From: Candidatus Limnocylindria bacterium
GTDB taxonomy: Bacteria; Chloroflexota; Limnocylindria; QHBO01
Assembly: GCA_036556325.1 (NCBI GenBank)
Contig: DATBJR010000049.1
Coordinates: 24,538 to 88,537 of the forward strand
Reading direction: 5' to 3'
Length of the DNA stretch: 64,000 nt
Positions 24,776 through 49,259 of this stretch are shown piece after piece. Under the pieces are notes generated by a model, which worked only from the letters and a program-made list of their open reading frames with translations, did not search any database and had not been told where the DNA came from. Within the stretch, counting starts at the first letter, position 1, and every line of letters starts with the position of its first letter. The position numbers were made by a program, and so were the translations under genes.

Positions 24776-24832
24776 GCGCCGGCTCGGCGCGGGGCGCATC
24801 GGCCCGGGAGTCCAGGAAGGAGTCACAGTCAG

Positions 24833-25765
<933 letters not shown>

Positions 25766-25772
25766 TGGACCG

Positions 25773-27377: not shown

Positions 27378-28684
27378 GCGACGGGCGCGGCCGTCCGCCC
27401 CGCGGCGCGGCGGCGGAACGCAGCACGGCGGCGGAGCAGGAGCTCGCCGTCCATCGCCGGCTGATGCGCTTCGGCGATCACGAGTCGCGGGTCGCGCCGG
27501 TCTGGTCGGAGAAGGACACCAGCGTGGCGGCCGTCGAGGGGCATCTCGCCAGCCTCTGGACGCTCGCCGGCGACGATGGTCCGCGCGTGACGGAGAAGGG
27601 GATGCCTCACGCACGCGCCTCGGTGCTGAACCTGATCGTGACCGTTCCGGACGAGCTGTCGGCCGATCGGGTGGTGTCGACCCTGCTGGGCCTGGGCTTC
27701 CGGCACCCGTCACGCGCCATCGTGCTTGCCGCCAACCCGCGGGCCGGTGGTCCCGCGGTGGATGCCTCGGTCAGCGCGCACTGCCACGCGATCCACGACG
27801 CGGACGAGCAGGTCTGCTACGAGGAGGTCGTGCTCACCGTCCGCGGCGAGGCTGCCGAGCACCTGGACGGCGTCGTCGCTCCGCTGCTCATCCACGACCT
27901 GCCGACCCTGGTCTGGTGGCCGGGCGATCCGCCCTTCGCCGACCCGATCTTCGACCAGCTGGTGGAGATGGGCGATCGGCTCATCCTGGACAGCAGCGAT
28001 TTCGGCGACCTCCTGTTCGGGCTCCGGCGGCTGTCGACCCTGCGGCGGCGCAGCGGCATCGCCGACCTCTCTTGGAAGCGGTTGGGCTGGTGGCAGGAGC
28101 TGACGGCCCAGTTCTTCGATGCGCCGCGCTTCCGTCGGTATCTCCCGAACCTCAACCGGGTGATCATCCGCTACGCGCTGGCACCGGCAACCGGATCAGC
28201 CCCGCAGCCCGAGCCGGAGTTCCCGGCACCGGGAGTTTCCAGCCCGATTGCCCAGGCGATGCTGTACGCGTCATGGATCGCCTCGCGGCTGGACTGGAAG
28301 CGACACAGCACCGTCCAACCGCTGGCCAATGGGCACCTGCAGCTGACGCTGGAAGGTCGCTACGCGATGGTGGAGCTGCGGATCGAGGGCGAGCCGACGA
28401 ACGTCGCGCCCGAGGGTGACCTGCTCTCGGTCCGGCTCCGTGCCCGCGGGGAGACGGGTGCGGCCGAGTTCATCATCGACCGCGATGGCGACGAGGCGAT
28501 CGTCGCGTCGAACGCGGACGGCATGACCGCCCAGCTGCGCCGCGTGCGAATGGAGCTGCCCACCGACAGCGAGCTGCTGGCCTCGACCATGGTCGCCGGC
28601 ACGCACGAGCCGGTGTACGAGGCCGCCGTCCGCGCGGCGGGGGTCCTCCTGGCCGCGGCTCGGCCGGTCGAGGAGGCCGGGTGA
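27374..28684 (+). CDS. opcA: OpcA, glucose-6-phosphate dehydrogenase assembly/effector protein
   Basis: Lies directly downstream of zwf, with GTG 27374 overlapping the zwf stop. OpcA-like size and pattern (ASVLNLIV, HPSRAIVL, TLVWWPG). A later start near 27464 is possible. Confidence 0.8.
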   Translation: MSDGRGRPPRGAAAERSTAAEQELAVHRRLMRFGDHESRVAPVWSEKDTSVAAVEGHLASLWTLAGDDGPRVTEKGMPHARASVLNLIVTVPDELSADRVVSTLLGLGFRHPSRAIVLAANPRAGGPAVDASVSAHCHAIHDADEQVCYEEVVLTVRGEAAEHLDGVVAPLLIHDLPTLVWWPGDPPFADPIFDQLVEMGDRLILDSSDFGDLLFGLRRLSTLRRRSGIADLSWKRLGWWQELTAQFFDAPRFRRYLPNLNRVIIRYALAPATGSAPQPEPEFPAPGVSSPIAQAMLYASWIASRLDWKRHSTVQPLANGHLQLTLEGRYAMVELRIEGEPTNVAPEGDLLSVRLRARGETGAAEFIIDRDGDEAIVASNADGMTAQLRRVRMELPTDSELLASTMVAGTHEPVYEAAVRAAGVLLAAARPVEEAG

Positions 28685-29454
28685 CCCGCGAGTTCATCGT
28701 CCTGGACGATGCGAACGCCGTGGCCACCGCAACCGCAGAACGCCTCATCGCCGCCGGCGAGGAGGCGATCGCGCGCCACGGGCGGTTCTTCCTGGCCCTG
28801 ACGGGCGGCTCCACCCCGCTGATGGTGTGCCCGCTGCTGGTCGTCCCGCCGCTGGTCAACGCCCTGGACTGGTCGAAGGTCGAGTTCTTCTTCGGCGACG
28901 AGCGGGCAGTCCCGTCGCGCCATCCCGAGTCGAACTACAACCTGGCCCGCACTGCGCTGCTCGACTACCTCCCCCGCGTGCGGCCCGGACAGGTGCACCG
29001 CATGCTCGGCGAGGCGGCGGATCTCGACGCGGCCAGCCGTGCCTACGAGGCGCTCATTGCCCGGACGCTCGGGGCGCCACACGGCGCCATCTCCTCCTTC
29101 GATCTGATCTGGCTGGGCATGGGACCCGACGGCCATACCGCCTCCCTCTTCCCCGACACTGCCGCGATGCAGGAGCGGAGCCGCTGGGTCGTTGCCAACT
29201 GGGTGCCGAAGCTGGATGCCTGGCGCATGACCATGACCTACCCACTTCTCAACGCGGCACGCGAGGTGAACTTCGTGGTCACCGGCGCCGACAAGGCGGC
29301 GGCCCTCGCCGCGGTCCGCGATGGCTCCGCAGCGGTGCCCGCCGCCGCAGTCGAGGCCGCTCGCACGGTGTGGTACGTCGATCGGGCCGCGGCCCAACAG
29401 GCCGAGCCCGCAGCATCCACCGGCGAGGCACCCGGCCGCGCGGCGAGCGGCTAG
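28681..29454 (+). CDS. pgl: 6-phosphogluconolactonase
   Basis: LALTGGSTP, FFGDERAVP and LGMGPDGHTASLFP motifs. GTGA overlap with opcA. Confidence 0.85.
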   Translation: MTREFIVLDDANAVATATAERLIAAGEEAIARHGRFFLALTGGSTPLMVCPLLVVPPLVNALDWSKVEFFFGDERAVPSRHPESNYNLARTALLDYLPRVRPGQVHRMLGEAADLDAASRAYEALIARTLGAPHGAISSFDLIWLGMGPDGHTASLFPDTAAMQERSRWVVANWVPKLDAWRMTMTYPLLNAAREVNFVVTGADKAAALAAVRDGSAAVPAAAVEAARTVWYVDRAAAQQAEPAASTGEAPGRAASG

Positions 29455-30602: not shown

Positions 30603-30947
30603 GTGCGGCGGGTCGTCATCGTGGGCCGTGACCTGATTGCCGCGACCCGGATCGCCGATGCTGCCGCGGCCGCCGGCTGCGACGCGGCCCGGGTGGACAC
30701 CCCGGACCAGCTGCCCGACGCATCGGAGATCGGCCTGGCCTTCGTCGACTGGGACGACCGGCAGGCGGACTGGGGCGCCAGCCTGCGGCGCTGGCGGGAC
30801 GCCGCAGACACCCCGGCTCCGCGCCTCCTGCTCTTCGGTTCGCACCGCGACGTGGCCGGTCATCGCGCGGCGCGAGCCAACGGCCTGGGACCGATGCTGG
30901 CGCGCTCGAAGCTGTTCGCATCGTTGCCGTCATTGCTGCGCGAGTGA
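30603..30947 (+). CDS. Stand-alone receiver (REC)-like domain protein with degenerate acidic pocket
   Basis: 114 aa. The pattern aligns by eye with CheY. RVVIVGRD matches beta1. LAFVDWD matches beta3, with an Asp at the phospho-acceptor position (compare CheY FVISDWNMP). LLLFGSH matches the beta4 Ser/Thr. MLARSKLF matches the beta5 Lys. The stop overlaps the first sulfotransferase start. Confidence 0.35.
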   Translation: MRRVVIVGRDLIAATRIADAAAAAGCDAARVDTPDQLPDASEIGLAFVDWDDRQADWGASLRRWRDAADTPAPRLLLFGSHRDVAGHRAARANGLGPMLARSKLFASLPSLLRE

Positions 30948-31864
30948 CGCACCGCGTGGCGCGGGTCCCGGACTTCTTCATCGTCGGCGCCCCGAAGGCC
31001 GGGACGACCGCGATGTACGAGTACCTGCGCGGTCACCCGGACCTGTTCCTGCCCGAGCGCAAGGAGCTGCGGTTCTTCGGCTCCGACCTCGACATTCGCG
31101 ATCGCACGCCGCTGACGACCGAGCAGTACCTCGACTACTTTGCCGATGCGCCGGCGGGCTCGCTGATCGGGACGGCTTATGTCTGGTACCTGTACTCGCG
31201 GTCGGCGGCGCAGGAGATCGCGGCCTTCAGCCCCGGCGCGCGGATCATCGCCATGCTGCGCAACCCGGTCGCCATGCTGCCGGCGCTGCATGCCGAACAC
31301 CTGACGAACGGGAACGAGGACATCCGCGACTTCACGGCCGCGCTCGACGCGGAGCCTGACCGGCGTGCCGGCCGGCGGATTCCGTCCCACGCCCACCTGC
31401 CGCAGGGCCTCTGGTACACCGATGTGCCGCGCTACGCCGAACAGCTCGAGCGGTACTTCGCGGCCTTCGGTCGCGATCGGGTGCGGGTGATCGTCTTCGA
31501 CGACTTCGTGGCGGACACGGCGGCCGTCTACCGCGACACGCTCCGCTTCCTGGGGGTGGACGACGGCTATCGGCCTCCGACCTTCACCGCGGTGAATGCG
31601 AACCGCCGGATCCGGTCCGAGCGCTGGCGCCATTTCCTGGCCCGCCCGCCGGAGCGGCTGCGGATCCTGATCCACCACCTCGTCCCGGCGCGGCTGCGAC
31701 GCGCGGCCTATGAGCGGGCAAAGGAGCTGAACGTCGTGGCGGCGCCCCGGGAACCCCTTCCGCCGGCGACGGCGGAGCGCCTGGCGGCGGCATTTGGTCC
31801 CGAGGTTGCGCACCTTTCCGCACTGCTCCGCCGCGATCTGACCACCCTCTGGCGGAGCAGTTGA
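30944..31864 (+). CDS. Sulfotransferase, Sulfotransfer_1 type (heparan-sulfate NDST/3-OST-like motif pattern)
   Basis: 5'-PSB loop FFIVGAPKAGTTAMYEYLRGHPDLF. 3'-PB segment RIIAMLRNPVAMLPALH. YAEQLERYF...RVRVIVFDDF...TLRFLGV parallels the NDST sulfotransferase domain layout. Confidence 0.8.
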   Translation: MTHRVARVPDFFIVGAPKAGTTAMYEYLRGHPDLFLPERKELRFFGSDLDIRDRTPLTTEQYLDYFADAPAGSLIGTAYVWYLYSRSAAQEIAAFSPGARIIAMLRNPVAMLPALHAEHLTNGNEDIRDFTAALDAEPDRRAGRRIPSHAHLPQGLWYTDVPRYAEQLERYFAAFGRDRVRVIVFDDFVADTAAVYRDTLRFLGVDDGYRPPTFTAVNANRRIRSERWRHFLARPPERLRILIHHLVPARLRRAAYERAKELNVVAAPREPLPPATAERLAAAFGPEVAHLSALLRRDLTTLWRSS

Positions 31865-32001
31865 CTGCACGCACCGGTACCACCGTCCCGGTTATTGCGC
31901 TAGTACTTCCGTTCAGGCAAAGTCGGGGTCGGAGTTATCGCTTCGTTATCAAGCGCTTATTTACTCGCTGATCCCGAGCATCAGTGCGAGGGGGAGGTTC
32001 A
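31865..32001 (+). promoter_or_regulatory. AT-rich promoter/regulatory region of the main biosynthetic operon, with 11-bp-phased TTAT(C/T) direct repeats
   Basis: Visibly the lowest-GC stretch I noticed. GTTATC at 31934 and 31945 and CTTATT at 31956 are spaced 11 bp apart. Candidate -35 TTATCG (31935-31940), 17-nt spacer, -10 TATTTA (31958-31963). RBS GGGGGAGG at 31989-31997. Confidence 0.4.
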
Positions 32002-32727
32002 TTGGCCGATACCATCCAGCACCGACGGGAGGCTCTGCAGGCAGCCGCCCTCTCGGCACTCCCGCTGCCCGAGCTGGAGTCGGTTCCCGCGCGACCGGAG
32101 GCCTTGACCGCCGTCCGCAAGCGCGCGGTTGACATCGCCGCCGCCGGGGTGCTGCTGCTCGCGTTCAGTCCCCTGTGGCTGCTCTGCGCCCTGCTCATCA
32201 AGCTGACGTCGCGCGGCCCGGTGATCTTCCGCCAGGAACGCATCGGCGCCGGCCAGCGGCCGTTCACCGTCTACAAATTCCGCACCATGCGGGTCGACAC
32301 ATCGGACGCGATCCACCGCGACTTCGTGACGCGCTACATCCTGGGCTCGCTGAGCCTGGACGCCGGTGCCTCCTACAAGCTGCCACGCGATCATCGGATC
32401 ACCGCGATCGGGCGCATCCTGCGCAAGCTCTCGCTCGACGAGGTGCCGCAGCTCGTCAACGTTCTGCGCGGGGAGATGTCGATCGTCGGGCCGCGGCCGC
32501 CGCTGCGCTACGAGGTGGAGAACTACGAGCCGTGGCAGCTCGGCCGCCTGGCCGTGCGGCCGGGCGTCACCGGCCTCTGGCAGGTGTCCGGCCGCAATCG
32601 GCTCAGCTTCGCGGAGATGTGCGAGCTCGACCTGCAGTACATCCAGTCGTGGAGCCTGCGCAAGGACCTGGCGATCATGGTTCGCACGCCGTGGGTCATG
32701 CTCGTGGACGCGGGAGGTGCCGAATGA
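32002..32727 (+). CDS. Priming phosphoglycosyl transferase (small bacterial sugar transferase, WbaP C-terminal/EpsL-like)
   Basis: PVIFRQERIG..RPFTVYKFRTM and DEVPQLVNVLRGEMSIVGPRPP motifs. One N-terminal TM. TTG 32002 preferred over GTG 31984 because of RBS spacing. Confidence 0.85.
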   Translation: MADTIQHRREALQAAALSALPLPELESVPARPEALTAVRKRAVDIAAAGVLLLAFSPLWLLCALLIKLTSRGPVIFRQERIGAGQRPFTVYKFRTMRVDTSDAIHRDFVTRYILGSLSLDAGASYKLPRDHRITAIGRILRKLSLDEVPQLVNVLRGEMSIVGPRPPLRYEVENYEPWQLGRLAVRPGVTGLWQVSGRNRLSFAEMCELDLQYIQSWSLRKDLAIMVRTPWVMLVDAGGAE

Positions 32728-33824
32728 GCGGCATCGTGCGCGCGGGCGTCATCGGCTGCGGCTACTGGGGCCCCAACCTCATCCGCAACTTCGCGCACCA
32801 CGATGACGCCACCGTGGCCATGGTGGCTGACGCGGTGCTCGAACGGGCCCAGCGGGTGGCGCGCATGTACAACGTGCCAGTGGCCACCACCGACGCCATG
32901 GACATCATCTCGTCGCCCGACATCGACGTGGTGGTCGTCGCCACCCCGGCTCGCACCCACGCGCCGCTGGCCAAGGCCGCCATCGAAGCGGGCAAGCATG
33001 TCCTGATCATGAAGCCGATGACGACGTCGGTCGAGGATGCAGAGGAGCTCGTCGCACTCGCCGAGCGCCGGGGCGTCCTGGTGGCCGTGGATCACACGTT
33101 CGTCTACACCGGTGCGGTGCGGATGATGCGCGACCTGGTGGAGAGCGGCGCCCTGGGCGAGATCTTCTACGTGGACAGCGTGCGCATCAACCTGGGTGTC
33201 TTCCAGTCGGACGTGAACGTCATCTGGGACCTGGCGCCGCACGACGTCAGCATCATCGACTACGTTCTCGGCGGCATCCTGCCGACGCAGGTCAGCGCGT
33301 TCGGCGCGGCGCATGCCGGCAGCCGGCGCGAGAACATCGCCTACCTGACCATGCGCTACGGTCCGAACGTGGTCGGTCACGTCCACGTGAACTGGCTCGC
33401 GCCGGCCAAGATCCGCCGCACGATCGTCGGTGGCTCGAAGCAGATGATCGTCTGGGACGACATGCAGCCGTCGGAGAAGCTGCTGATCTACGACAAGGGC
33501 GTGACCATCGCGCCGGATGATGATCCGGAGAAGGTCTACGAGGAGCTCGTGTCGTATCGCTCCGGCGACGTGCTGGCGCCCCGGCTCGATGACCGCGAGG
33601 CGCTGTCGGTCGAGGTGGACGAGGTGATCCGCTGCATCCGCCAGGGCGGCACGCCGATCTCCGACGGATCCGCCGGGCTGCGTGCCGTTCGCGTGCTCGA
33701 GGCGGCAGCCCGATCCGCGCGCGACGGGTCCCATCCCGTCGAGCTTGACGGCGGAAACCCGAATGCCGTCGTGCCGCTGCGGATCGTTCCCGAAACCGAG
33801 GCCCGGGCCGCATCGGCCAAGTAG
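32724..33824 (+). CDS. Gfo/Idh/MocA family NAD(P)-dependent sugar(-nucleotide) oxidoreductase
   Basis: VRAGVIGCGYWGPNLIRNF Rossmann motif. HVLIMKPM (EKP-like). ATGA overlap with the upstream gene. 366 aa. Confidence 0.85.
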   Translation: MSGIVRAGVIGCGYWGPNLIRNFAHHDDATVAMVADAVLERAQRVARMYNVPVATTDAMDIISSPDIDVVVVATPARTHAPLAKAAIEAGKHVLIMKPMTTSVEDAEELVALAERRGVLVAVDHTFVYTGAVRMMRDLVESGALGEIFYVDSVRINLGVFQSDVNVIWDLAPHDVSIIDYVLGGILPTQVSAFGAAHAGSRRENIAYLTMRYGPNVVGHVHVNWLAPAKIRRTIVGGSKQMIVWDDMQPSEKLLIYDKGVTIAPDDDPEKVYEELVSYRSGDVLAPRLDDREALSVEVDEVIRCIRQGGTPISDGSAGLRAVRVLEAAARSARDGSHPVELDGGNPNAVVPLRIVPETEARAASAK

Positions 33825-33902: not shown

Positions 33903-35012
33903 GTGGAGCTACGAACCCTCTTCCACATCGTCACCAGCCGCTGGTGGCTGGTGCTGCCGATCTTCGTGCTGACGCTTGCCGCCGCGATCGGGTTGACCAT
34001 CGTGCAGCAGCCGCTGTACAGCGCGTCATCCACGTTGGTCGTGGCGCCGTCGGTGACGGACCAGAACACGCTCGACGTCATCTCGCTGCTGTCCCGGCAG
34101 TCGGAGATCAGCGACACCTACGCCCAGATCGGCTCCAGCCGAACGGTGCAGGAGGCCGCCGCCAAGCAGCTCAGCCTGAGCGCGGCGGATCGGGCCGAGC
34201 TGCAGCTGGAGAGCGTCCTGGTCAGCGGCACGACGCTGCTCGAGATCACGGCCACCTCCCCGAACCCGGAGATCGCCGCCGATTACGCCAATGCTGTCTC
34301 GCAGCAGCTGGCGAGCTACGTGAACGCGCACTATGGCGTCTTTTCGGTCAGCGCCCTTGATCCGGCCGGCATTCCGAGCCGTCCCGTGTCGCCCGACGTT
34401 CCGCTCAACCTGGCGCTCGGCGTCGCCGGCGGGCTGGTGCTTGGCGTCGGCCTGGCGCTGGTCGCACACCTCGTCCAGCCGCAGGCCCGGGCGGGGCTGC
34501 GCGATATCGTCGATCCCGAGACCTGGGCCTTCAACGACTCGTACTTCGCCTACCGGCTCGCCCAGGAGATGAACCGCAGCACGCGCAGCCGGCAGACAAC
34601 CGCGGTGGCGCTCATCGACGTCAACCACGAGAACGCGCTCGACGACCTGATGCCCCGCGTCCGGACCGAGGCGTTCCGTCGGATCGCGACCCTGCTGGAC
34701 AGTCACGTCCGACCGGAGGACATCGTGGCGCGCCTGTACGGCAGCGTGTTCGGGATCGTCATGCCGGACACCAACGAGGAGCAGGCGGTGGCCATCGTCG
34801 AGGGCCTGCGCAGCCGGCTGGCGGGCCCCGCCTTCGGCACGACCGCGAACGGCGTCCCGGCCCATGCCAATCCGGCCGCCGGCGTGGTCGAATACCGCGA
34901 GGGATCGGGTGACGTGATGCAGCACGCACAGAGCGCGCTGCGAGCAGCCAAGGAAGGCCCCATCGGGCGAACAGAGGCGTTCTCGGCACTGTCGGTCCAG
35001 CCCGGGACCTGA
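33903..35012 (+). CDS. Polysaccharide co-polymerase (Wzz/PCP) fused to a degenerate GGDEF domain with retained RxxD I-site
   Basis: TM1 (aa 13-33), a ~135-aa external Wzz-like segment, then TM2 (aa 168-190). Residues ~204-360 align along their length with PleD-type GGDEF domains. The active site reads YGSVF (aa 279-283) instead of GG(D/E)EF. RPED (aa 270-273) sits at the canonical I-site distance. Confidence 0.75.
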   Translation: MELRTLFHIVTSRWWLVLPIFVLTLAAAIGLTIVQQPLYSASSTLVVAPSVTDQNTLDVISLLSRQSEISDTYAQIGSSRTVQEAAAKQLSLSAADRAELQLESVLVSGTTLLEITATSPNPEIAADYANAVSQQLASYVNAHYGVFSVSALDPAGIPSRPVSPDVPLNLALGVAGGLVLGVGLALVAHLVQPQARAGLRDIVDPETWAFNDSYFAYRLAQEMNRSTRSRQTTAVALIDVNHENALDDLMPRVRTEAFRRIATLLDSHVRPEDIVARLYGSVFGIVMPDTNEEQAVAIVEGLRSRLAGPAFGTTANGVPAHANPAAGVVEYREGSGDVMQHAQSALRAAKEGPIGRTEAFSALSVQPGT

Positions 35013-35014
35013 CG

Positions 35015-36562
35015 ATGGTCGACCGCCATGTGGTCCTGGCCGCCAAGGGCGGCGGGATGGTGTTCGCTGGGCGCCTTTTCGTGTGGGGCACGCGCTTCGG
35101 CATGGCCGTGCTCCTGGCGCGCCAGATGGGCGCGGACAGCTACGGGCTCTACAACGTCACCCTGACCATCGCCACCCTCGGTTCGGCGTTCTCGGTCATC
35201 GGCCTCGACTCCGCGCTGATTCGCTACGTGGCGGTCTATTCGCGGCGCATGGACCGCTTGGGCGTGCTCGGCACGCTGCGGGTCGGGATCGGCTTACCCA
35301 TGCTGGTGAGCGGCGGCGCGGCGCTCATCCTGCTGCTCCTGGCCGCGCCGGCGGCGCGCCTGGCGGGAGACGTCCGTTTGGAGCCCCTGATCCGGATCGG
35401 CGCGGTGCTGGTGCCGGCCATGGTGTCGAACTCGCTGCTGGCGGCGACCCTGCAGGGCGCCCAGCGCATCGGCTGGGCGGTGCTGGCCGAGCAGTTCGCG
35501 CAGCCGACGGTGCGCCTGGCGATCCTGCTCGTGCTCACCGTCATCGGCATGACCCCCGAGGGTGCGGTCATGGCCTCGACCCTGGCCACGCTGGCGGCGA
35601 CGGCGCTGCTGCTGTGGTTCGTCCAGCGCCAGATCTCGCTGGAGGGCATCGCCGGCGAGGTCCGCGCCGAACCGGGCACGATGCTCCGCTTCTCGCTGCC
35701 GGTGTACTTCTCGAACCTGGTCAACACCTTCGGCGGCAACCTGCAGACGCTGCTGCTCGGCGCCATGGCCTCGATGGCCAAGGCCGGCGTCTTCGGCATC
35801 GCCAACCAGGTGATGCTGGTGGGCGCGATCTTCCACTCGGCGGTCGTGCAGGCCGCCATGCCGATCTTCGCCGAGCTCCAGGACTCTGAAGACCGCAGCC
35901 GCCTCAACGCGCTGTATCGCACCACGTCGAAATGGACGTTCACCCTCAACCTGCCGTTCTTCCTGCTCGCCGTCCTCATGCCGGAGGCGCTGCTCGGGAT
36001 CTTCGGCAGCGACTTCACGAGCGGCGCGACCGCACTCACCATCCTGGCCTTCGCGTCCCTCACCAATGCCGCCACCGGCACCTCTGGCGCCATCCTGGAC
36101 ATGACCGGGCACACCAGCGTCAAGCTCGTCAACTCGACCGTGTCGGTGGGGCTGGCCATCGTCCTGAACCTGCTCCTGATTCCCTCCCTGGGTGTCACGG
36201 GCGCGGCGATCGCCTCGCTCGGATCGGTGGCCTCGGTCAACCTGCTGCGTGTGGGCGAGGTGGCCTGGCTCGTGCACGTCGGCCCCTACGACCGCAGCTG
36301 GGTCAAGCCCGTGATCGCGGGTATTGCCGCCGCCACGGTGGGATGGGCCCTGTTGCTCGGCCTGCAGAACGTCGCATCCCTGCTGGTGCGCAGCGGGGTG
36401 GCAGCGCTCGGCCTGGCGGCGACCTACGTGCTCGTGTTGCTCGTCCTGCGGCTCAGTGACGACGATCGGATCATCGTGTCGCGTGCGGCCCGCAAGTTCA
36501 CCCGGCGGCGGGGAGGTCCGGCGGGCCTGGCGCAGGCCAGCCCCGGCCGCGAGCCGACATGA
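35015..36562 (+). CDS. wzx: Wzx-type oligosaccharide flippase (polysaccharide biosynthesis protein, MOP superfamily)
   Basis: 515 aa with about 14 hydrophobic helices. Position is between the PCP and modification genes. Composition is typical of Wzx/RfbX-like proteins. Confidence 0.8.
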   Translation: MVDRHVVLAAKGGGMVFAGRLFVWGTRFGMAVLLARQMGADSYGLYNVTLTIATLGSAFSVIGLDSALIRYVAVYSRRMDRLGVLGTLRVGIGLPMLVSGGAALILLLLAAPAARLAGDVRLEPLIRIGAVLVPAMVSNSLLAATLQGAQRIGWAVLAEQFAQPTVRLAILLVLTVIGMTPEGAVMASTLATLAATALLLWFVQRQISLEGIAGEVRAEPGTMLRFSLPVYFSNLVNTFGGNLQTLLLGAMASMAKAGVFGIANQVMLVGAIFHSAVVQAAMPIFAELQDSEDRSRLNALYRTTSKWTFTLNLPFFLLAVLMPEALLGIFGSDFTSGATALTILAFASLTNAATGTSGAILDMTGHTSVKLVNSTVSVGLAIVLNLLLIPSLGVTGAAIASLGSVASVNLLRVGEVAWLVHVGPYDRSWVKPVIAGIAAATVGWALLLGLQNVASLLVRSGVAALGLAATYVLVLLVLRLSDDDRIIVSRAARKFTRRRGGPAGLAQASPGREPT

Positions 36563-38112
36563 CGGCGGCCGAATCCACGCGGCGGGAGATGCATCCTGCC
36601 TTTCCCGCCGACGCCCTGGCCCTGACTCGCCAGGTGTTCGGCGCGCTGAACGGCGCCGAGGTGCGGTACTGCCACTGGAAGAGCACGACCGCCCTGGCGC
36701 TGGGCCTGGCCGGTCGGACCGATCTCGACCTGCTGGTCGACCGAGAAGCCGCCGCCGTCTTCGGTGCGACCGTCCGGGCCGCCGGATTCAAGCCGTTCAT
36801 CTCGCATCCCAGCCGGCGCTACGTCGGCGTCGAGGACTGGCTTGGCCACGACACGGCGAGCGGACGGCTGGTCCACCTCCACGTCTACTACCGCCTGGTG
36901 CTCGGCGAGGACTATGTGAAGAACCACGTGCTGCCGATCGAGAAGGCGGTCCTTGACGACGTGGTCCTGCGCGACGGCGTCAAGGTGCCGGCGCCCGCCA
37001 CGGAGCTCGTCATCCTCGTCGTCCGGGCGCTGCTGAAGTACCGTCGCACCGATGCCGCCAAGGACGCCCTGCGGCTCGGGCGGCGCGGTGGCGTCCCGCC
37101 GAACGTGCGTCGCGAAGTGCAGGACCTCTCCGAGCGCGTCACGGCCGCAGAGCTGCGGGCCGCCGCGCAGCGGCTGATGCCGCAGCTGCCGCCGGCAGTC
37201 TTCACTGACTTCGTCGACGCGCTCCGCTCCGACCATCGCAACGCGGCAGCCCTGTTGCGCCTGCGGGGCGTCGCGCGACGCGCGCTGCGCGGCTTCGAGC
37301 GGCTTCCGGCGCACCGCGCCCTGGCCATCTCCGTGAGTGCGCGGCTGCAGCGCGCCCCCGGACTGCGGCGCGTGCTGCGCCCGCAATCGAAGGCGGACCT
37401 GCGGCGCAAGTCCTCCGCTGCCGGCGGCCTGACGGTGGCGCTCATCGGCCCCGATGGCGCGGGCAAGACGACGGTGATCGACGAGGTCGTGCGCTGGCTT
37501 GGTTGGCGCCTCAGCCTGCGGACCTCGTATCTCGGGACTGCACGGCCCTCGACCTCGACGGCGGCCGTGCAGGTGCTGAGCCGATACGCGCGGCGCCTCG
37601 CTCGCCGTCGCGAGGCAGGAGGGCGCGCCCCTTCCGGGTCGCTCGACCGCGTCGCCAGGCTGCTGGCAGCCACGCGCTACCTGGCCGAGGCACGCGACCG
37701 GGCCCGCCGCGCGCGCGAGGGACGCCGCCTGGCCGCGAACGGTACGCTGGTCCTCTTCGACCGCTATCCGTTGCCGTGGGTCAGGCTGGCCAATCGGCCG
37801 GTCGACGGGCCGCGGATCGCCGAGCTGCAGGAAGCCCGCGGCCGGGGCCTGCTCGGGATGCTGCAGCGGCGGGAGGAGGCCACCTACGCGGCCATGCCGG
37901 CCCCGGACCTGGTCATCCTGCTTGCCGTCGACCCCGAGGTGGCACTGGCCCGCAAGGGCAACCAGGACCGTGATGCGATCGTGGCCAAGGCGCGTGCCGT
38001 CCAGGAGGCCGCGGCCGGCGCGGATCGCGATGGGGTGGTGGTGGTCGATGCTGGCCAGCCGCTCGATACCGTCGTCGGCCAGGTCGAGGCGGCCATCTGG
38101 CAGCGGCTCTGA
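36559..38112 (+). CDS. Two-domain protein: NTP_transf_5-like nucleotidyltransferase-fold domain + thymidylate-kinase-like P-loop domain
   Basis: N-terminal part has YCHWKST...GRTDLDLLVD...VHLHVYY (polymerase-beta-like DxD pattern). C-terminal part has P-loop ALIGPDGAGKTT (aa 294-305), LVLFDRYP (DRY-like) and DLVILLAVDPEVALARK. ATGA overlap with wzx. Confidence 0.6.
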   Translation: MTAAESTRREMHPAFPADALALTRQVFGALNGAEVRYCHWKSTTALALGLAGRTDLDLLVDREAAAVFGATVRAAGFKPFISHPSRRYVGVEDWLGHDTASGRLVHLHVYYRLVLGEDYVKNHVLPIEKAVLDDVVLRDGVKVPAPATELVILVVRALLKYRRTDAAKDALRLGRRGGVPPNVRREVQDLSERVTAAELRAAAQRLMPQLPPAVFTDFVDALRSDHRNAAALLRLRGVARRALRGFERLPAHRALAISVSARLQRAPGLRRVLRPQSKADLRRKSSAAGGLTVALIGPDGAGKTTVIDEVVRWLGWRLSLRTSYLGTARPSTSTAAVQVLSRYARRLARRREAGGRAPSGSLDRVARLLAATRYLAEARDRARRAREGRRLAANGTLVLFDRYPLPWVRLANRPVDGPRIAELQEARGRGLLGMLQRREEATYAAMPAPDLVILLAVDPEVALARKGNQDRDAIVAKARAVQEAAAGADRDGVVVVDAGQPLDTVVGQVEAAIWQRL

Positions 38113-39875
38113 TGATCATCGAGCTGGCCGGCCCGGTCGGGGCCGGTAAATCGGCGGTTGCCCAGGGGCTGCCGGAGGCGCTGCGCGCCCGCGGGATCGC
38201 TGCGAGCAACCTCCACGAGATCGCGCGGCTCAACCGCCCACGAACGTGGCTATGGAGCACGTGGTTCGCGGTTCGCCATCCTCGCCTGACCTGGGTGGCC
38301 TGGCGAGCGGTGTCGGGGGCGCCGATCCCGTGGTGGCATCGGCGGCTCATCTTTGGCCTGACCGTGGGCGTGGGCGGTCGGATCGCGTACGCGCGGCGAC
38401 GGGTCCCTCGCGACCACATCGTGCTCGTTGACGAGGGACTGGTGCATCGGGCCGTGAACCTGTTCAGCTGGTACGGGCGCCCGCCGGAGCGCGCCGTCCG
38501 GCGCTACGTGGCGCTGGTGCCGCTGCCCGACGCCGTCATCCACGTCGACACCGATCCCGAGGCCGCCCGACGCCGCGTGCTGGCGCGTGGCCTGCCGCGC
38601 CGCCTGGTGGGTCGCTCGGAAACGGACGTCGCCGCGTTCGTGGGGCGAGCCCGGGACGTGGTGACGACGGCCATCGCGGCGTTGCAGCACCGCCCCGGAG
38701 CGACGGTGATCAAGGTGACCAACCGGCAATCGCTGCGGCGCTCGATCAGCAACGCTGCGCGCTCGACGAGCCGGCTCGTCACCGACGCCAGCCCCGGCCC
38801 GGGCAACCTGGTGCTAAGGCCGCGTTTCCCGATCGTTGCGCGACCGGACCGGGCGCTTGCCCGGCTTCGAATCCGGCGCTCGGGGGGCATCCCGGCCTCG
38901 CAGCTCGCCGCGGTCCTGGATCGCTACGGGCTGCACGCGACCGGCCGGCCTCGCGTCCTCTCGGCCCCGCGAGCGCGGGGCGCCACCGTCCGCGTCAGGA
39001 CGGCCGACGGCGAGGTCGTCGTCAAGCGCTATAAGCCGAATGTCGAGCCGTCGGTCCTGGCGATCGAGCACGCCGTCCTGGCCGCGCTGGCGGCGGACGA
39101 CTTCCCGGCCCCGCGGCTGCGAACGGCCCTGGACGGCACCTCGGGGGTGAGCCTGGACGGAGCGTGCTTCGCGGTGTCGGACGCCATCGGTGGATACCGC
39201 CACCCGCACGAGCTGGTCATGGCTCGCACCGATCGCCGCCAGCTCGAGGTGATTGCTGCACGCCTCCTCGCCAGGCTGCACGCGGCGCTGGAGGCCCTTG
39301 ACGTCCCGCCCTCCGCGACGCTCGGCTTTGCCGGCCGGGACGGTCCGCGGGTGCGCGACGTCGCCTGGTACACCGATCGGCTGGCGGATGCCCCTGCGCC
39401 CCGGCGCGTCCGCGCGTGGGTGCATGGCGCGCTGTGGGAGCTGTACGAGCGATTCCAGGCCGAGGGGCTGCCCACCACGGTGGTGCATGGCGACTACGGG
39501 CCGTACAACCTGCTCATCCGGCCCGGTCGCGTGCCGGTCGTGGTCGACTTCGAGCTCGCGCGCCGCGACTGGCGCCTGGTTGACCTGGCGACCGGCATCG
39601 GCTGGTTCGCGCAGCGGCGTCGAACGTTCGACGCCGCCGCCGGGCGCCGGTTCCTCGAGGCCTACCGCCAGGCCAGCGCCATCAGGGACGACGAGCTGCA
39701 GCGGCTGCCCCAGGTCGCTGCGTTCCTGGCGCTGCAGCGCGCCGTCATCGCCTGGTCGCGAACCGCCGAGGGGGGCCTGCTCGATTGGGACGCCGAGGCT
39801 CGCTGGCGCATCGTCGCGGCCGAGGACCTGCTTGCCGGGCGCCACCCGCTGAACGCGGTGCTGCGCCGATGGTGA
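38112..39875 (+). CDS. Two-domain protein: P-loop NTPase/kinase-like domain + aminoglycoside-phosphotransferase (APH/choline-kinase)-fold kinase domain
   Basis: Walker A ELAGPVGAGKS (aa 4-14) and Walker B-like IVLVDEG. C-terminal part has VVVKRYK (ATP lysine), catalytic VVHGDYGPYNLL (aa 457-468) and VVDFELA (DFE metal-binding motif). TGATG junction with the upstream gene. Confidence 0.7.
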   Translation: MIIELAGPVGAGKSAVAQGLPEALRARGIAASNLHEIARLNRPRTWLWSTWFAVRHPRLTWVAWRAVSGAPIPWWHRRLIFGLTVGVGGRIAYARRRVPRDHIVLVDEGLVHRAVNLFSWYGRPPERAVRRYVALVPLPDAVIHVDTDPEAARRRVLARGLPRRLVGRSETDVAAFVGRARDVVTTAIAALQHRPGATVIKVTNRQSLRRSISNAARSTSRLVTDASPGPGNLVLRPRFPIVARPDRALARLRIRRSGGIPASQLAAVLDRYGLHATGRPRVLSAPRARGATVRVRTADGEVVVKRYKPNVEPSVLAIEHAVLAALAADDFPAPRLRTALDGTSGVSLDGACFAVSDAIGGYRHPHELVMARTDRRQLEVIAARLLARLHAALEALDVPPSATLGFAGRDGPRVRDVAWYTDRLADAPAPRRVRAWVHGALWELYERFQAEGLPTTVVHGDYGPYNLLIRPGRVPVVVDFELARRDWRLVDLATGIGWFAQRRRTFDAAAGRRFLEAYRQASAIRDDELQRLPQVAAFLALQRAVIAWSRTAEGGLLDWDAEARWRIVAAEDLLAGRHPLNAVLRRW

Positions 39876-40903: not shown

Positions 40904-40946
40904 GCCTCGATAGTCCCATTGTGCCGTGGTACCTGAGGGGAGTCTT

Positions 40947-42839
40947 GTGTCCCGAGCCCTATCCGTCCTCGTCTCGCTGGCGCTCGTCGGCGCCGTGCTC
41001 GTTGCCACGCCGGCCGCCACCGGGCAGTCACGCGCAGCCGGCTGGGGGTTCATCCGTCTCGAGCACATCCTGGAGGCGCATGACCTCGGCATCGTGAAGC
41101 CGGGCCCCCTGGCCTGGGACGCAGGCGCCAGCGCGCTGGAGATCACCGACCGCGTCACCGGCGCGGGCAAGCTGGTCACCACCCGCGGGGCCGCGCACGG
41201 CAACCTGCCGCGCCTCCAGGCGCCCCATGGGCGCTCGCTCTCGGCGACCGATCCGTCCAGCGGCCACCTCTTCACGTTGGACCTGCGGAACGGCGTCCTG
41301 GTGGAGGCCTCGGCCGGCGGCCAAATACTCTCGCAGCGCAACGTGGCCAACTTCAGGCTCCAGGGCGTGGAAGGGATGACCGTCGCGCCGACCTCGGATA
41401 CCACCGATCCCAGCAGCTTCTCGAGCCTCTACGTCTCGGTGGCGAATGCCTCTGACGGCAGCTCGGCTACCGGACCCGGCGTGCTGGAGCTGGCCCTGTC
41501 GGCGCAGCCGATCTCGGCGCTCGTTTCCAGCGTTCCCGACAACGTGGGGCACCTGATCAAGACCATTGACACCGTCGGGCCCAACTGGAATCCGTTCAGC
41601 CCCGATCCGTCCGGCCTCGCCTACGACACCACCAGGGGCACCCTCGTGGTCGATGACGGCGAGATCGAGGAGGAGCAGGTCAACGATTACCCCTATCCCG
41701 GCCACAACGTGTGGGACGTCAACCCGGTCACCGGCGCCGGCACGGGGATCATGGACACCACGACAGCCAGTCCGAACAACAACGAGCCGGTCGGCGCCGC
41801 GTATGACAAGGTCCGAGACGAGCTCTATCTCTCGCGGGACGGCTCCAAGTCCCGGGTGTGGGCCTACCGGCGCGCCGGCAACCAGTGGGTCGGGCGTGAC
41901 AGCATCGACCTGGCCGCCTTCGGGCTGGGCGACGCCGAAGGCCTGGCGTTCGCCAACAACCAGCTCTTCGTCGCCGATGGGTCGGACAAGGACGTATGGG
42001 TCATCGGTGCCGGGACCGATGGGATCGTCGCCACCAGCGACGACGTGGTGGTCCGGCACTTCGACACCGCCTCGTTCGGGATCTCGAACCCGGAGGGCAT
42101 CGGCGTCGACTTCAACACCGGCAACCTGTGGATCCTGAGCCACAACGGCGCCGAAGGAATGATCGAAACCACGCAGTCCGGCACGCTGGTGAGCACCACC
42201 CATTACGACTTCGCCACCAACAACCCCGGCGGCGTGGACATCGGGCCCTCGTCCTCGACCACGGACGCGTCGAACGTGATGAGCGCCTGGATCGCGCAGC
42301 GCGGCGTCGACAACAACACCGATCCGAGCGAGAAGGACGGCAAGATCTTCGAGGTCGCGATCCAGACCGGCTCTCCGCCGCCGCCGCCGGGCGACCTCGT
42401 GCAGAACGGCGATTTCGAGAGCGGGACGGTCGGCACCGCGCCCCCGTCCTGGACGACGAATACGAACTTCACCGCATCGAACGCGGTCGTGCACGGAGGC
42501 AGCCTCTCGGGTCGCCACTTCTCGAACGCGGACGCCGGCTACAAGATCGAGCAGACGGTGGCCGCCAGCCCGGGGACCTACGACTTCAGCGCCTGGGCCA
42601 ACCCGGTCGTGACCTCGGACGCCTTCAGCGTCGCCTTCAAGGTGCAATGGCGCACGGACACCAAGGCCCTGACGACGGTGACGGTGGGCAAGGTGAACAA
42701 GCAGACGACTGCAGGCTGGAAGCAGTTCACGCAGACCCTCACCGCGCCGGCGGGGACCACCAAGGTCAAGATCTCCATGGTCGTCGGCAGCCTGAAGACC
42801 ACCGTCTACGTGGACGACATCAGCCTGACCGCGCCGTGA
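40947..42839 (+). CDS. Secreted protein: signal peptide + beta-propeller-like repeats + C-terminal CBM4_9/galactose-binding-like carbohydrate-binding module
   Basis: Signal peptide SRALSVLVSLALVGAVLVATPAATGQS. Recurring PSGLAYD / AEGLAF / PEGIGVD blade-like motifs. PPPPP linker. C-terminal NGDFESG...GWKQF...VYVDDISL is typical of CBM4_9-type jelly rolls. Confidence 0.7.
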   Translation: MSRALSVLVSLALVGAVLVATPAATGQSRAAGWGFIRLEHILEAHDLGIVKPGPLAWDAGASALEITDRVTGAGKLVTTRGAAHGNLPRLQAPHGRSLSATDPSSGHLFTLDLRNGVLVEASAGGQILSQRNVANFRLQGVEGMTVAPTSDTTDPSSFSSLYVSVANASDGSSATGPGVLELALSAQPISALVSSVPDNVGHLIKTIDTVGPNWNPFSPDPSGLAYDTTRGTLVVDDGEIEEEQVNDYPYPGHNVWDVNPVTGAGTGIMDTTTASPNNNEPVGAAYDKVRDELYLSRDGSKSRVWAYRRAGNQWVGRDSIDLAAFGLGDAEGLAFANNQLFVADGSDKDVWVIGAGTDGIVATSDDVVVRHFDTASFGISNPEGIGVDFNTGNLWILSHNGAEGMIETTQSGTLVSTTHYDFATNNPGGVDIGPSSSTTDASNVMSAWIAQRGVDNNTDPSEKDGKIFEVAIQTGSPPPPPGDLVQNGDFESGTVGTAPPSWTTNTNFTASNAVVHGGSLSGRHFSNADAGYKIEQTVAASPGTYDFSAWANPVVTSDAFSVAFKVQWRTDTKALTTVTVGKVNKQTTAGWKQFTQTLTAPAGTTKVKISMVVGSLKTTVYVDDISLTAP

Positions 42840-44696: not shown

Positions 44697-44728
44697 GCGA
44701 CCGGGGCGACTCCGGAACAAGCGCGGTT

Positions 44729-44746
44729 GTCGCGCCTGGGCGCGAC
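44729..44746. promoter_or_regulatory. Perfect palindrome GTCGCGCC-TG-GGCGCGAC in the divergent sulfotransferase intergenic region
   Basis: Read directly. 8-bp arms, centred about 40 nt upstream of the minus-strand gene start (44696). Confidence 0.25.
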
Positions 44747-46846: not shown

Positions 46847-47701
46847 TCACTCCCATGCCAATGACGGCCCCAGGTGGCGCGATCGTCGTCGCCAGGACAG
46901 CTGGCCCAGCTGCCAGCGGGAGGCATCGGCCAACCGCTGCGGAAGCATACCGGCCCGACCGGCAACCGGCCGCAATGCGTACCCGTGGGCCCGCATCTCC
47001 GGGCTCGCGTGGGCCTGCACGAATGCGATGTCACGCTCCGCCAGGGGCTCGCCCGGGGATGGGGGCAGTGTGCCGATCAGCGCCGGATCGAACGCCTCGC
47101 CGACGAAGGCGCACATCTCGCGCAGGGTCCGCTCCGGGTCGCCGGCCAGGTCCTCGTAGCGAACGACGCGGAACGCGTCTGGCCGCTGCGCCACGCCCGT
47201 GGTACCGGCGCGCGCAGACGCGATCCAGGCGGCCGTTTCGGCGCCCAGGCCGCCGCGGCCGACGGTCCCACGCGCCAGCATCTCGGCGTACCGGTCGCGC
47301 GGATCGCGGACGAGCTGGACGATCCGCGCCTCGGGCAGCTCCTCCAGCACCCGGCTCGCCCCGAGCTCCAGCAGGGCCTCCTGCAGCCCCCATCGGCTCG
47401 TGCCCGCTCGCTCACAGACCTGTCGCCCGAGCTCGCGTACCAGCGCCGCGAAGTCGCCGCCGGAGGCTGACGCGGACAGGCGGTCGCGGTCCAGCGGCGA
47501 CGTCATGGCCCCGCTCGCCTCGAGGGCTTCGATGACGCGCTGACGACCCTCGGGACCGCCGGCGAACCAGCCGCGCAGCCGCGTCCACAGCTCGACGTGA
47601 CGAACGATGTGGATCGAGGGGTGCGCCTCGAGCATCCCCCGAAGCGCTGTCTTGCCGCTGTGGTCGAGGCCCGCCAACAGGATCGGCGCGGCCTCCCTCA
47701 C
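46847..47701 (-). CDS. Sulfotransferase (Sulfotransfer_3-like, subfamily A)
   Basis: GTG 47701 overlaps the wzy-like stop (GTGA). ILLAGLDHSGKTALRGMLEAHP. RIVQLVRDPRDRYAEML. Confidence 0.75.
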   Translation of the reverse strand: MREAAPILLAGLDHSGKTALRGMLEAHPSIHIVRHVELWTRLRGWFAGGPEGRQRVIEALEASGAMTSPLDRDRLSASASGGDFAALVRELGRQVCERAGTSRWGLQEALLELGASRVLEELPEARIVQLVRDPRDRYAEMLARGTVGRGGLGAETAAWIASARAGTTGVAQRPDAFRVVRYEDLAGDPERTLREMCAFVGEAFDPALIGTLPPSPGEPLAERDIAFVQAHASPEMRAHGYALRPVAGRAGMLPQRLADASRWQLGQLSWRRRSRHLGPSLAWE

Positions 47702-49164
47702 GGGCGCAGCGGGGCGGGGACGGTCCAGCCGATGCGGACAACCTCTTCGGGCCGCGAGCCGCGGGTCAGCACGACGTGGATCAGGCCGAGGCACAGCCAC
47801 CACAGCGAGGTGCCCCAGGTGCTGGAGTGGAGCATGTCCATGAAGTTCATGACCACGAACTCATGGCCGAGGGCGAGCCACATCGCGATCAGCAGCGCCC
47901 CGTGTAGTGGGTCGCGACTGGTCACCTGGCGCCAGCGGCGCAGCGTGAGCCAGAGGAGCCACGCCACCGGGAAGAGGTAGAGGATCAGCGCCGGCAGGCC
48001 GTTTTCGGCGGCCAGGGCCAGGAAGGTGTGATGCGCGCTTCCCTCCTGGGCGGGCATGTTGCCGACCCGGACCTTCAGCGACTCGTCGAACAGCTCGAAG
48101 TTGTCGTAGCCGAAGCCGAGAGCCGGCCGCAGCTGGATCATGCGGATGGCCGCGTTGTTCGTCACCAGCCGCGATTCGGCGGTGTCCGCATCGGCGAACC
48201 GGGTCGCCGCGAACGCGGCGATCGCGCCGCCGCTGGCCACCACCAGGACGACCAGCACGATGCCGAACAGGCCACCGAGCTTGGCTGCCACGCCACGCCG
48301 GAAGATCAGCAGGCCCAGCAGCACGGCCGCAGCCCCGAGCCAGGATCCCCGCGAGAAGGAGATGGCCACGCCGATGAACGCCATCGCGATCACGGCAAAC
48401 AGCCCCCAGCGGGCCAGCTCGCTGCGGCGGACCTCCAGGAAGGCGACAGCCATCATGGCACCGACCATCAGCGTCGCCGTGTACGGTGCCGGGCCGCGCA
48501 CCGTACCGACCGTTCGTTCGCCGGCTCGTCCCAACCACTCAGCGGGCAGCACCGATGGCGCCAGCCAGCTGAGCGCGCCAACCGCGAACTGGAGCACCAC
48601 CAGGCCGATGAACATCCACAGCAGCCATTGGAGCTCCCGCTCGCGCGGTTCGGTGACGCGGATGAGCCAATACAGCGCAATGGGAATGACCAGCTTGTCG
48701 TAGAAGTTCGCCATCTCGCGCACCGGGTTGCCGGTGAGCAGCTGGACGTTGACAAAGGCGAGGATGAGGAATCCGACAATCGCCACATCGGTCAGGCTCA
48801 GGCGGAAGTAGCTGCGACTCAGGCCGAGCATCCGGTACGCCAGGGCGACGATGAGCATGACCGGGACGAGCAGCCGCTCGATCAACCATGTCTCCGGCCC
48901 TGACGCCGGTCCGGCCACCGCCGTGCCGCCGCCAACGGCGAACAACGGCTCCAGGGCGACGTACACCAGCACCGCCGTCCACGGGTAGCGGAAGAGGAGA
49001 ATGACGAGGGGCAGGGCCACGGCGACGACGAACGTCGTGCGGTCGTGCCCCTGCGCGGCCAGCCATCCGACGACCAAGGCGAGGACGACGCCGGTCGCGA
49101 CCAGCGGCCAGCCAACGCGGCCGGGTCCGCGGAACGTGGCGAGCGGTTGGCGAGCGACGGCCAT
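47698..49164 (-). CDS. wzy: O-antigen ligase/polymerase (Wzy_C) family membrane protein
   Basis: Ten or more TM helices. Large loop with GSAHHTFLALAAENGLPAL, matching the aHN.yL...E.G pattern of the Wzy_C/O-antigen ligase domain. Start at ATG 49164 preferred. Confidence 0.75.
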   Translation of the reverse strand: MAVARQPLATFRGPGRVGWPLVATGVVLALVVGWLAAQGHDRTTFVVAVALPLVILLFRYPWTAVLVYVALEPLFAVGGGTAVAGPASGPETWLIERLLVPVMLIVALAYRMLGLSRSYFRLSLTDVAIVGFLILAFVNVQLLTGNPVREMANFYDKLVIPIALYWLIRVTEPRERELQWLLWMFIGLVVLQFAVGALSWLAPSVLPAEWLGRAGERTVGTVRGPAPYTATLMVGAMMAVAFLEVRRSELARWGLFAVIAMAFIGVAISFSRGSWLGAAAVLLGLLIFRRGVAAKLGGLFGIVLVVLVVASGGAIAAFAATRFADADTAESRLVTNNAAIRMIQLRPALGFGYDNFELFDESLKVRVGNMPAQEGSAHHTFLALAAENGLPALILYLFPVAWLLWLTLRRWRQVTSRDPLHGALLIAMWLALGHEFVVMNFMDMLHSSTWGTSLWWLCLGLIHVVLTRGSRPEEVVRIGWTVPAPLRP

Positions 49165-49259
49165 GTGAGGAACGGTCCAGCTGCTGCGTCGAAGCCGCAG
49201 TGTACCGGCGCATGACCCGAAATGCCGCATCGGGCACGCCGGATGGCAACATTGTGGTG

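Follow-up and report, generated by a model that had tools for sequence, protein, structure and literature searches.

A polysaccharide co-polymerase fused to a degenerate GGDEF domain in uncultured Chloroflexota is a candidate c-di-GMP receptor of a Wzx/Wzy-type exopolysaccharide pathway

A gene of 'Candidatus Limnocylindria' (Chloroflexota) encodes a polysaccharide co-polymerase (PCP) of the Wzz type that is fused to a cytoplasmic GGDEF domain. This domain is degenerate in its catalytic signature and keeps the RxxD motif of the inhibitory site (I-site). The gene, referred to as PCP-dGGDEF, lies at 33903..35012 on the forward strand of a 64-kb stretch of contig DATBJR010000049.1, and this whole stretch is called the window below. 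It stands in an exopolysaccharide (EPS) cluster of the Wzx/Wzy type, and a search of the window found no bacterial tyrosine kinase (BY-kinase), the usual partner of such co-polymerases. The degenerate GGDEF domain (dGGDEF) is probably a receptor of cyclic di-GMP (c-di-GMP), which it is predicted to bind through its I-site, in a PCP of the Wzx/Wzy pathway.

The window has a GC content of 70% and contains many shadow open reading frames (ORFs), and its coding frames were told apart by the GC content of the codon positions. The ORF listing gives PCP-dGGDEF a GTG start and a length of 369 amino acids, and codon-position GC values of 0.69/0.48/0.90 mark the frame as coding. An AGGA motif lies a few bases 5' of the GTG codon. 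The stop codon is followed after 2 nt by the ATG of wzx, and the two genes are predicted to be translationally coupled. The product is a two-transmembrane (TM) PCP fused to a cytoplasmic GGDEF domain, and all of its parts are read from the forward strand. The N terminus is cytoplasmic and is followed by TM helix 1 at residues ~14-36 (33942..34010), where Kyte-Doolittle windows exceed 1.6 and the AlphaFold2 model has a helix at 14-34. An extracytoplasmic alpha/beta PCP domain occupies residues ~37-165 (34011..34397). A proline-rich motif (P158, P161, P164, P167) then runs into the glycine-rich TM helix 2 at residues ~166-192, the GNVR region (34374..34478), which the model places at 166-191. 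By hydropathy, the two TM segments enclose an external loop of ~130 residues and have basic flanks on the cytoplasmic side, so the GGDEF domain is cytoplasmic. A linker of ~10 residues joins TM helix 2 to this domain, which spans residues 203-351 (34509..34955). It contains RPED, the RxxD I-site motif, at residues 270-273 (34710..34721) and YGSVF, the degenerate counterpart of GG(D/E)EF, at residues 279-283 (34737..34751).

Sequence, topology, fold and context all identify the N-terminal half as a PCP. It matched the Pfam Wzz model (PF02706) over residues 2-90 with 34.4 bits (cut-off 25.5), and GNVR over residues 142-187 with 24.8 bits, which is just under the cut-off of 27.7. The CpsC-family chain-length determinant model of NCBIfam (TIGR01006) aligned over residues 2-191, and the external PCP domain is short, as in the CpsC/CapA type. 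The four prolines before TM helix 2, together with G173 and G177, are invariant or near-invariant in the family. A model of the N domain (residues 1-200) had a pLDDT of 85 and a pTM of 0.69. The best 50 matches of this model in a Foldseek search of the PDB were all KpsE (PCP-3) or Wzc (PCP-2a), at a lowest E value of 3e-8 and a highest TMq of 0.73.

The C-terminal half has the GGDEF fold. Pfam GGDEF (PF00990) matched residues 203-351 with 62.4 bits (E 5.6e-17, cut-off 23.8), and residues 202-352 aligned to the GGDEF and PleD models of NCBIfam, with 54 bits for TIGR00254 against a cut-off of 37.4. A phmmer search of the PDB aligned this half with 31 GGDEF chains, among them PleD, WspR and 3ign. 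The AlphaFold2 model, which was built from a 22-sequence family alignment, had a mean pLDDT of 85. Its best PDB matches in Foldseek were GGDEF domains, several of them crystallized with c-di-GMP in the I-site (3ign, TMt 0.86; 6tts, 0.85; 4zmm, 0.85), and TMt ranged from 0.82 to 0.86 against isolated GGDEF domains. A first-pass annotation of the window, made from the letters and their ORFs, had described the TM-loop-TM topology of a short PCP and a GGDEF-like C-terminal region, and had named hmmscan with the Wzz and GGDEF models as a check. Both domains scored above threshold. The topology was borne out by the hydropathy, the AlphaFold2 helices and the Wzz match, and the C-terminal assignment agrees with both the Pfam score and the TM scores of 0.85-0.86 to GGDEF crystals.

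The same architecture was found in many related proteins. The close family was taken from a word-indexed homologue search, which gave 46 homologues, 42-94% identical, that share the Wzz+GGDEF architecture. Those of them that carry a name are all from 'Candidatus Limnocylindria' metagenome-assembled genomes (MAGs) and are annotated as 'diguanylate cyclase'. The wide family was taken from a profile search that covered 1.84 billion cluster representatives exhaustively and gave 352 clusters at E<=1e-30. Both halves were covered in 116 full-length representatives among the best 150 of these 352 clusters, with <=50% mutual identity, so that more than 100 distant full-length homologues stand beside the close ones. 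Organism names are scarce for the distant clusters. The distant members that are named come from Anaerolineales, Anaerolineae and 'Chloroflexi bacterium' MAGs, and every named member is an uncultured Chloroflexota. PCP-dGGDEF is an old family that extends across at least two Chloroflexota classes. A search for related loci with the close-family alignment retrieved close Limnocylindria/Chloroflexota MAGs only, and a homologue search with the broad family alignment added almost nothing beyond the close family. One of the related loci, which are numbered here with the prefix L, carries a gene 94% identical to that of the window (L007), and the distant loci have 47-55% GC versus 70% in the window. 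Pairwise identities of the N half and the C half co-vary (Mantel r 0.33, 0/500 permutations), which would fit a single, old fusion whose halves were passed on together. Some members are extended at the C terminus past the dGGDEF domain, by a peripheral-subunit-binding domain (E3_binding; P0085, P0089, P0079), by a helix-turn-helix (HTH; P0083), or by disordered, basic tails of 200-300 residues that are rich in Pro and Ala and end in RRAR (P0064, P0222, P0026). These extensions suggest partner docking at the cytoplasmic end.

Loss of the active site was followed by mapping residues onto PleD by hand from the phmmer alignments to PDB chains. The nucleotides 34710-34751 translate to RPEDIVARLYGSVF, in which YGSVF (279-283) takes the place of the PleD signature GGEEF (368-372). 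The Mg2+ ligand E370 of PleD thereby corresponds to S281, and the signature Glu E371 to V282. The guanine readers N335 and D344 correspond to D247 and T255, and the acidic residue D329 to N241. The other Mg2+ ligand, D327, is retained here as D239, although the family as a whole does not keep it. GG[DE]EF occurs in none of the 116 representatives (0/116), and the position of YGSVF is highly variable; the close family alone has YGSVF, YGTVF, EGTVF, GGTIF, DGTTF, DDMTF and GDGVF. When the 161 domain positions were ranked by conservation over the 116 representatives, catalytic positions fell at ranks 58-152, with the Mg2+ ligands at 108 and 111, the guanine readers at 92 and 138, and the phosphate binders (equivalents of K442 and R446) at 145 and 152. 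YGSVF and the lost metal and guanine residues imply that the domain is not a canonical cyclase, and on these residues the active site appears to be dead both here and across the family.

In contrast to the active site, the I-site is retained. RPED at 270-273 aligned in phmmer with RAID of PleD (359-362) and with RPSD of P. syringae WspR, and the residues IVARL separate it from YGSVF, so that RxxD stands five residues upstream of where the signature would be. Both motifs had been pointed out in the first-pass annotation. RPED at this spacing reads exactly so in nt 34710-34751, and the replacement of GG(D/E)EF by YGSVF, with altered metal and substrate residues, was confirmed by the PleD alignment and by the family, where no canonical signature was seen. 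R270, E272 and D273 are invariant in the 46 close and in 22 diverse homologues. Among the 116 representatives, RxxD is present in 88, the Asp in 102 and the Arg in 93, with Lys in five more. The I-site Asp is the 4th and the I-site Arg the 8th most conserved of the 161 domain positions. This pattern suggests selection on the I-site, in contrast to the free drift of the former active site. In fact the motif reads R-x-E-D: E272 (34716-34718) does not vary in the close family and is shared by 74% of the 116 representatives (rank 12/161), a degree of conservation beyond what an 'x' position of RxxD would lead one to expect.

The receptor principle is known from degenerate GGDEF proteins of other EPS systems. 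PssE of Listeria monocytogenes, a degenerate GGDEF protein with RxxD that is encoded in an EPS operon, binds c-di-GMP with a Kd of 0.79 uM and is required for EPS (PMC4125290). In YdaK of Bacillus subtilis, the R202A/D205A exchange abolishes EPS (PMC5422440). YdaK and PssE resemble PCP-dGGDEF because they are TM-anchored or operon-encoded, are degenerate (SDERI and DKDDA), carry RxxD five residues upstream and act as post-translational EPS switches, the role predicted here. However, their N-terminal parts are plain TM anchors and their systems are GT2 synthase-dependent, whereas the protein described here is a Wzx/Wzy co-polymerase. In PelD of Pseudomonas aeruginosa, which has counterparts in Gram-positive Pel systems, the cytoplasmic degenerate GGDEF domain takes up dimeric c-di-GMP at RxxD, and polymer formation depends on this domain (PMC8461298). 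PelD is likewise an inner-membrane protein of an EPS machine with such a domain in the cytoplasm, but it combines four TM helices with a GAF domain and dGGDEF, lacks a PCP domain and serves a synthase-dependent pathway. In addition, R402 is essential in PelD, and its presumed equivalent here is Gly. A specific relatedness to PelD or BcsE was considered and dropped, since a family profile against the PDB retrieved active cyclases and not PelD, and Foldseek did not reveal it either. PleD and WspR have the same domain fold and the same geometry of RxxD five residues before the signature, but every family member examined has lost the catalytic signature and the metal and guanine residues. Compared with the class of degenerate-GGDEF receptors formed by PelD, PssE, YdaK and PopA, the dead site and the RxxD spacing are present here and the third Arg is absent. 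Alg44, the alginate co-polymerase, has a PilZ c-di-GMP receptor joined via one TM helix to a periplasmic co-polymerase-like domain and is therefore a precedent for a receptor built into polymerisation machinery. Its receptor is PilZ and not dGGDEF, its periplasmic part is like a membrane fusion protein and not a PCP, and its pathway is synthase-dependent. PCP-dGGDEF is predicted to work like the degenerate-GGDEF I-site receptors and to be an orthologue of none of them.

The PCP half has its own relatives, and in these the cytoplasmic module is a kinase. Wzc, CapA/CapB, CpsC/CpsD and EpsA/EpsB are two-TM PCPs of Wzx/Wzy clusters with a cytoplasmic regulatory module right after TM2, as in PCP-dGGDEF. 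They differ from it in the nature of this module, which is a BY-kinase in the PCP-2 systems, in the same protein after TM2 or in an adjacent gene. In PCP-2b the kinase gene is normally adjacent, and the kinase is activated by a short cytoplasmic tail after TM2. This defining feature of PCP-2 is missing here: the PCP-dGGDEF protein has neither a P-loop kinase domain nor a Tyr cluster, and no BY-kinase gene is adjacent to it. A tblastn search of the window with eight BY-kinases matched the Wzz half and nothing else, and no BY-kinase was found in the conserved clusters of four related loci (L001, L003, L014, L016). The P-loop protein at 36559-38112 and the APH-fold protein at 38112-39875 were considered as disguised BY-kinases and rejected because they have no BY-kinase similarity and no Tyr cluster. 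The nearest non-fusion homologues are Actinobacteria Wzz+BY-kinase proteins, with 25-31% identity over the N half, and among the 12 PCP-like homologues that are closest to the family without belonging to it, 10 have a BY-kinase-type P-loop domain after TM2, where dGGDEF sits here. Since the regulatory module is a dGGDEF domain, its predicted input is a second messenger and not phosphorylation. The first-pass annotation had stated that no BY-kinase is present in the locus, which holds for the window, and that a c-di-GMP sensor appears to have replaced the BY-kinase module, which gains indirect support from these outside homologues. Its more general statement that PCPs normally pair with BY-kinases is too broad, because PCP-1 and PCP-3 do not. 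In the distant locus L017, a receiver domain fused to a ParA/BcsQ/AAA_31-type ATPase is encoded at 1779-3044, ~7 kb upstream of PCP-dGGDEF, and BY-kinases match the same Pfam families as this receiver-ATPase.

Several observations weigh against c-di-GMP binding. The third I-site Arg, R390 of PleD, corresponds to Gly301, which is unconserved (rank 139/161). R390 is taken here to be equivalent to R402 of PelD, and WspR presumably has a Lys at this position, as judged from an alignment, so that an Arg there may not be universal. R402 of PelD has been described as indispensable for binding c-di-GMP (PMC8461298). PleD R392 corresponds to R303, and R305 lies one helical turn past position 301, but both are invariant in the close family only. 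Strict RxxD is missing in 28 of the 116 representatives. The 64-kb window and ~0.25 Mb of related loci showed no GGDEF, EAL or HD-GYP enzyme: when six GGDEF proteins were run by tblastn against the window and 16 loci, the only matches were PCP-dGGDEF genes, and Pfam scans of the window ORFs chosen by codon-position GC gave no EAL and no HD-GYP match. A point in favour of the receptor is that HD-GYP is prevalent in some Chloroflexi, so c-di-GMP machinery exists in the phylum. Most degenerate GGDEF-only proteins keep the I-site and have been proposed as effectors (Seshasayee et al., PMC2952852), so RxxD retention is expected rather than exceptional. The conservation pattern of I-site and active site is the expected signature of an effector and no oddity. 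E222, R225 and R228 are still more conserved than the I-site Arg and Asp. They were considered as a family-specific secondary I-site, a reading that was given less weight once the E..R..R pattern was seen in 3ign and WspR too; as generic positions of the GGDEF fold they are not counted as specific evidence. An alternative to the receptor is a nucleotide-independent scaffold, in which only the fold matters, the domain oligomerises the PCP or docks the flippase, the priming transferase or kinases, and the R and D are structural. The missing third Arg, the 24% of representatives without strict RxxD, the absence of a cyclase from the surveyed surroundings and the interaction modules added in some members (E3_binding, HTH, Pro/Ala tails) all fit such a scaffold. 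However, RxxD ranks 4th and 8th of 161 while the active site drifts, and the characterised RxxD-keeping dGGDEF proteins of EPS operons all bind c-di-GMP. RxxD is also not needed for the fold, because many active cyclases fold without it. A pure scaffold is thus considered unlikely.

Another ligand could occupy the I-site or the remnant active site, and with GTP, (p)ppGpp, cGAMP or c-di-AMP in this role EPS would be tied to energy or stringent status. The PDB entries 9g85 and 9g86 are of PleD with ppGpp/pppGpp as well as c-di-GMP, and the conserved Glu of RxED (74%) together with the lack of an R390 equivalent hints at a modified site. In contrast, the equivalents of N335, D344, K442 and R446 are lost and unconserved (ranks 92-152), and the RxxD geometry is the canonical one of c-di-GMP; a different nucleotide is regarded as quite improbable. 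A true diguanylate cyclase, possibly with an unorthodox active site, would supply local c-di-GMP to the EPS machinery. The automatic annotations of JGI and NCBI ('diguanylate cyclase') and the above-threshold score of the GGDEF model would agree with it, but YGSVF, the replaced E370, N335 and D344, and the hypervariable motif without a single canonical signature in the 116 representatives leave it scarcely credible. Finally, the protein could be an ordinary PCP-2b-type modulator whose BY-kinase is encoded at another place in the genome, and dGGDEF would then be an accessory input. The window shows 64 kb of the genome only, the N half is most like CpsC-family and BY-kinase-fused PCPs, and the receiver-ParA/AAA_31-type ATPase of L017 lies ~7 kb from the fusion gene. 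Against this, neither the window nor the clusters of L001, L003, L014 and L016 contained a BY-kinase, and dGGDEF occupies the post-TM2 position that belongs to the kinase-activating tail in PCP-2b. A distant kinase partner is very unlikely on this evidence.

The preferred reading remains that dGGDEF is a c-di-GMP receptor, and its mechanism is proposed because of the analogy with PssE, YdaK and PelD. When cellular c-di-GMP rises, an intercalated c-di-GMP dimer would bind R270 and D273, and nearby arginines would probably help, which could be R303/R305 or, on helix alpha1, R225/R228. The bound dimer would alter the conformation of the dGGDEF domains under the PCP oligomer, or the way they associate with each other. 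The changed cytoplasmic face of the PCP would then license Wzy-dependent polymerisation and export of a probably sulfated EPS. In the nearest PCP relatives, the same job is done by autophosphorylation cycles of a BY-kinase at the same position. The binding of c-di-GMP, its activating direction and the switch through the oligomer are all predicted. A more specific version, which is possible but offered tentatively, is that a ring of dead GGDEF domains has replaced the BY-kinase ring under a Chloroflexota PCP. In this version, c-di-GMP dimers would connect neighbouring subunits, I-site to alpha1 arginines, in the manner of the Ip-Is cross-links in PleD and WspR, and would thus assemble or lock the oligomer and switch polymerisation on.

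PCP-dGGDEF lies within a Wzx/Wzy-type cluster at ~30.9-61 kb of the window, and the first-pass annotation was right to place it within the polymerisation and export machinery. Its conserved upstream neighbours are the genes of a priming phosphoglycosyl transferase (Bac_transf; 31984..32727, +; PF02397, 215 bits), found also in L001, L003, L014 and L016, and of a GFO/IDH/MocA sugar oxidoreductase (32724..33824, +; PF01408, PF02894). The 549-residue ORF at 32175-33824 is a composite. The real GFO/IDH/MocA start is at 32724 (MSGIVRAG...), where its ATG overlaps the stop codon of Bac_transf (ATGA). A Wzx-type flippase follows the fusion gene (35015..36562, +; Polysacc_synt, Polysacc_synt_3) and is also the next gene in L001, L002, L003, L014, L015 and L016. 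The order Bac_transf, GFO/IDH/MocA, PCP-dGGDEF, Wzx is kept in loci whose fusion proteins have 43% and 52% identity (L001, L003). At ~30% identity (L014, L016), the order of Bac_transf and GFO/IDH/MocA is swapped, and PCP-dGGDEF followed by Wzx is unchanged. The distant member L017 has a different visible gene context. Downstream of wzx, 36559..38112 (+) encodes a soluble P-loop protein without a TM segment, with Walker A GPDGAGKT at residue 297 and a weakly dTMP-kinase-like C terminus. The gene at 38112..39875 (+) encodes a protein with a P-loop (GPVGAGKS) and a phosphotransferase of the APH/CotS/protein-kinase fold (PF01636, 86.6 bits; NCBIfam homoserine kinase, CotS, SrkA-like), and an APH-fold gene recurs in L001, L003 and L014. 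A Wzy-like polymerase of the O-antigen ligase family is encoded on the reverse strand at 47698..49230 (PF04932, 55.9 bits). The cluster also holds three GT4 glycosyltransferases, two UDP-sugar dehydrogenases and one epimerase. An NHL-repeat/NTTRR-F1 protein (40926-42839) and a pectate-lyase-like protein (54002-55675), whose 148 bits against the PelZ model fall far short of the equivalog cut-off, are candidates for a role in polymer processing or at the surface.

Six sulfotransferase genes are present in the EPS cluster (30944-31864, 42859-46840 and 50438-51346). In the related Limnocylindria locus L001 (2526-6532, 17643-21140), ATP-sulfurylase, adenosine 5'-phosphosulfate (APS) kinase and a DHH/DHHA1 phosphoesterase are also encoded beside the cluster. 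The sulfotransferase-rich cluster predicts a heavily sulfated EPS outside the cyanobacteria. According to the synechan paper, however, sulfated EPS is unique to cyanobacteria among bacteria (PMC8205485). Shortly upstream of the cluster, a complete pentose-phosphate operon (20016-29454) encodes transketolase, transaldolase, a phosphoglucose isomerase-like protein, 6-phosphogluconate dehydrogenase, glucose-6-phosphate dehydrogenase, OpcA and 6-phosphogluconolactonase. A 6-phosphogluconolactonase gene is also found upstream in L001 and L003, which indicates a conserved neighbourhood.

Direct post-translational control by c-di-GMP is known for synthase-dependent systems, namely cellulose, alginate, Pel, poly-N-acetylglucosamine (PNAG), Pss and Yda. 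For Wzx/Wzy pathways, the accepted switches are phosphorylation by BY-kinases and transcription. Neither Wzx nor Wzy nor Wzc is named anywhere in a 2021 review on how c-di-GMP controls EPS (PMC8461298). A full-text search of the available literature found no description of a Wzz/PCP-GGDEF fusion and none of c-di-GMP in Limnocylindria; the candidate papers name separate genes only. The first-pass annotation had known of no description of the architecture, and the literature search agrees with this; the fusion is not rare, however, but forms a large Chloroflexota family that is mis-annotated as 'diguanylate cyclase'. Hundreds of database entries with this name are almost certainly not cyclases, and they inflate the counts of c-di-GMP synthases for Chloroflexota. 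The receptor principle itself is already established, and the candidate novelty is an I-site receptor built into a Wzx/Wzy co-polymerase. If the ring switch is true, a Wzx/Wzy pathway, here that of a sulfated EPS, would for the first time be under direct post-translational control by c-di-GMP, and oligomerisation would be switched by the binding of a second messenger in place of cycles of tyrosine phosphorylation. With a sensor of c-di-GMP built in, such a co-polymerase would link two regulatory worlds, that of the second messenger and that of the BY-kinase, and would suggest how Wzx/Wzy systems without a BY-kinase are controlled. The soluble domain of ~170 residues can be expressed alone and therefore offers a simple testable handle. 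It would give access to the regulation of EPS and biofilm in abundant uncultured Chloroflexota of soil and freshwater.

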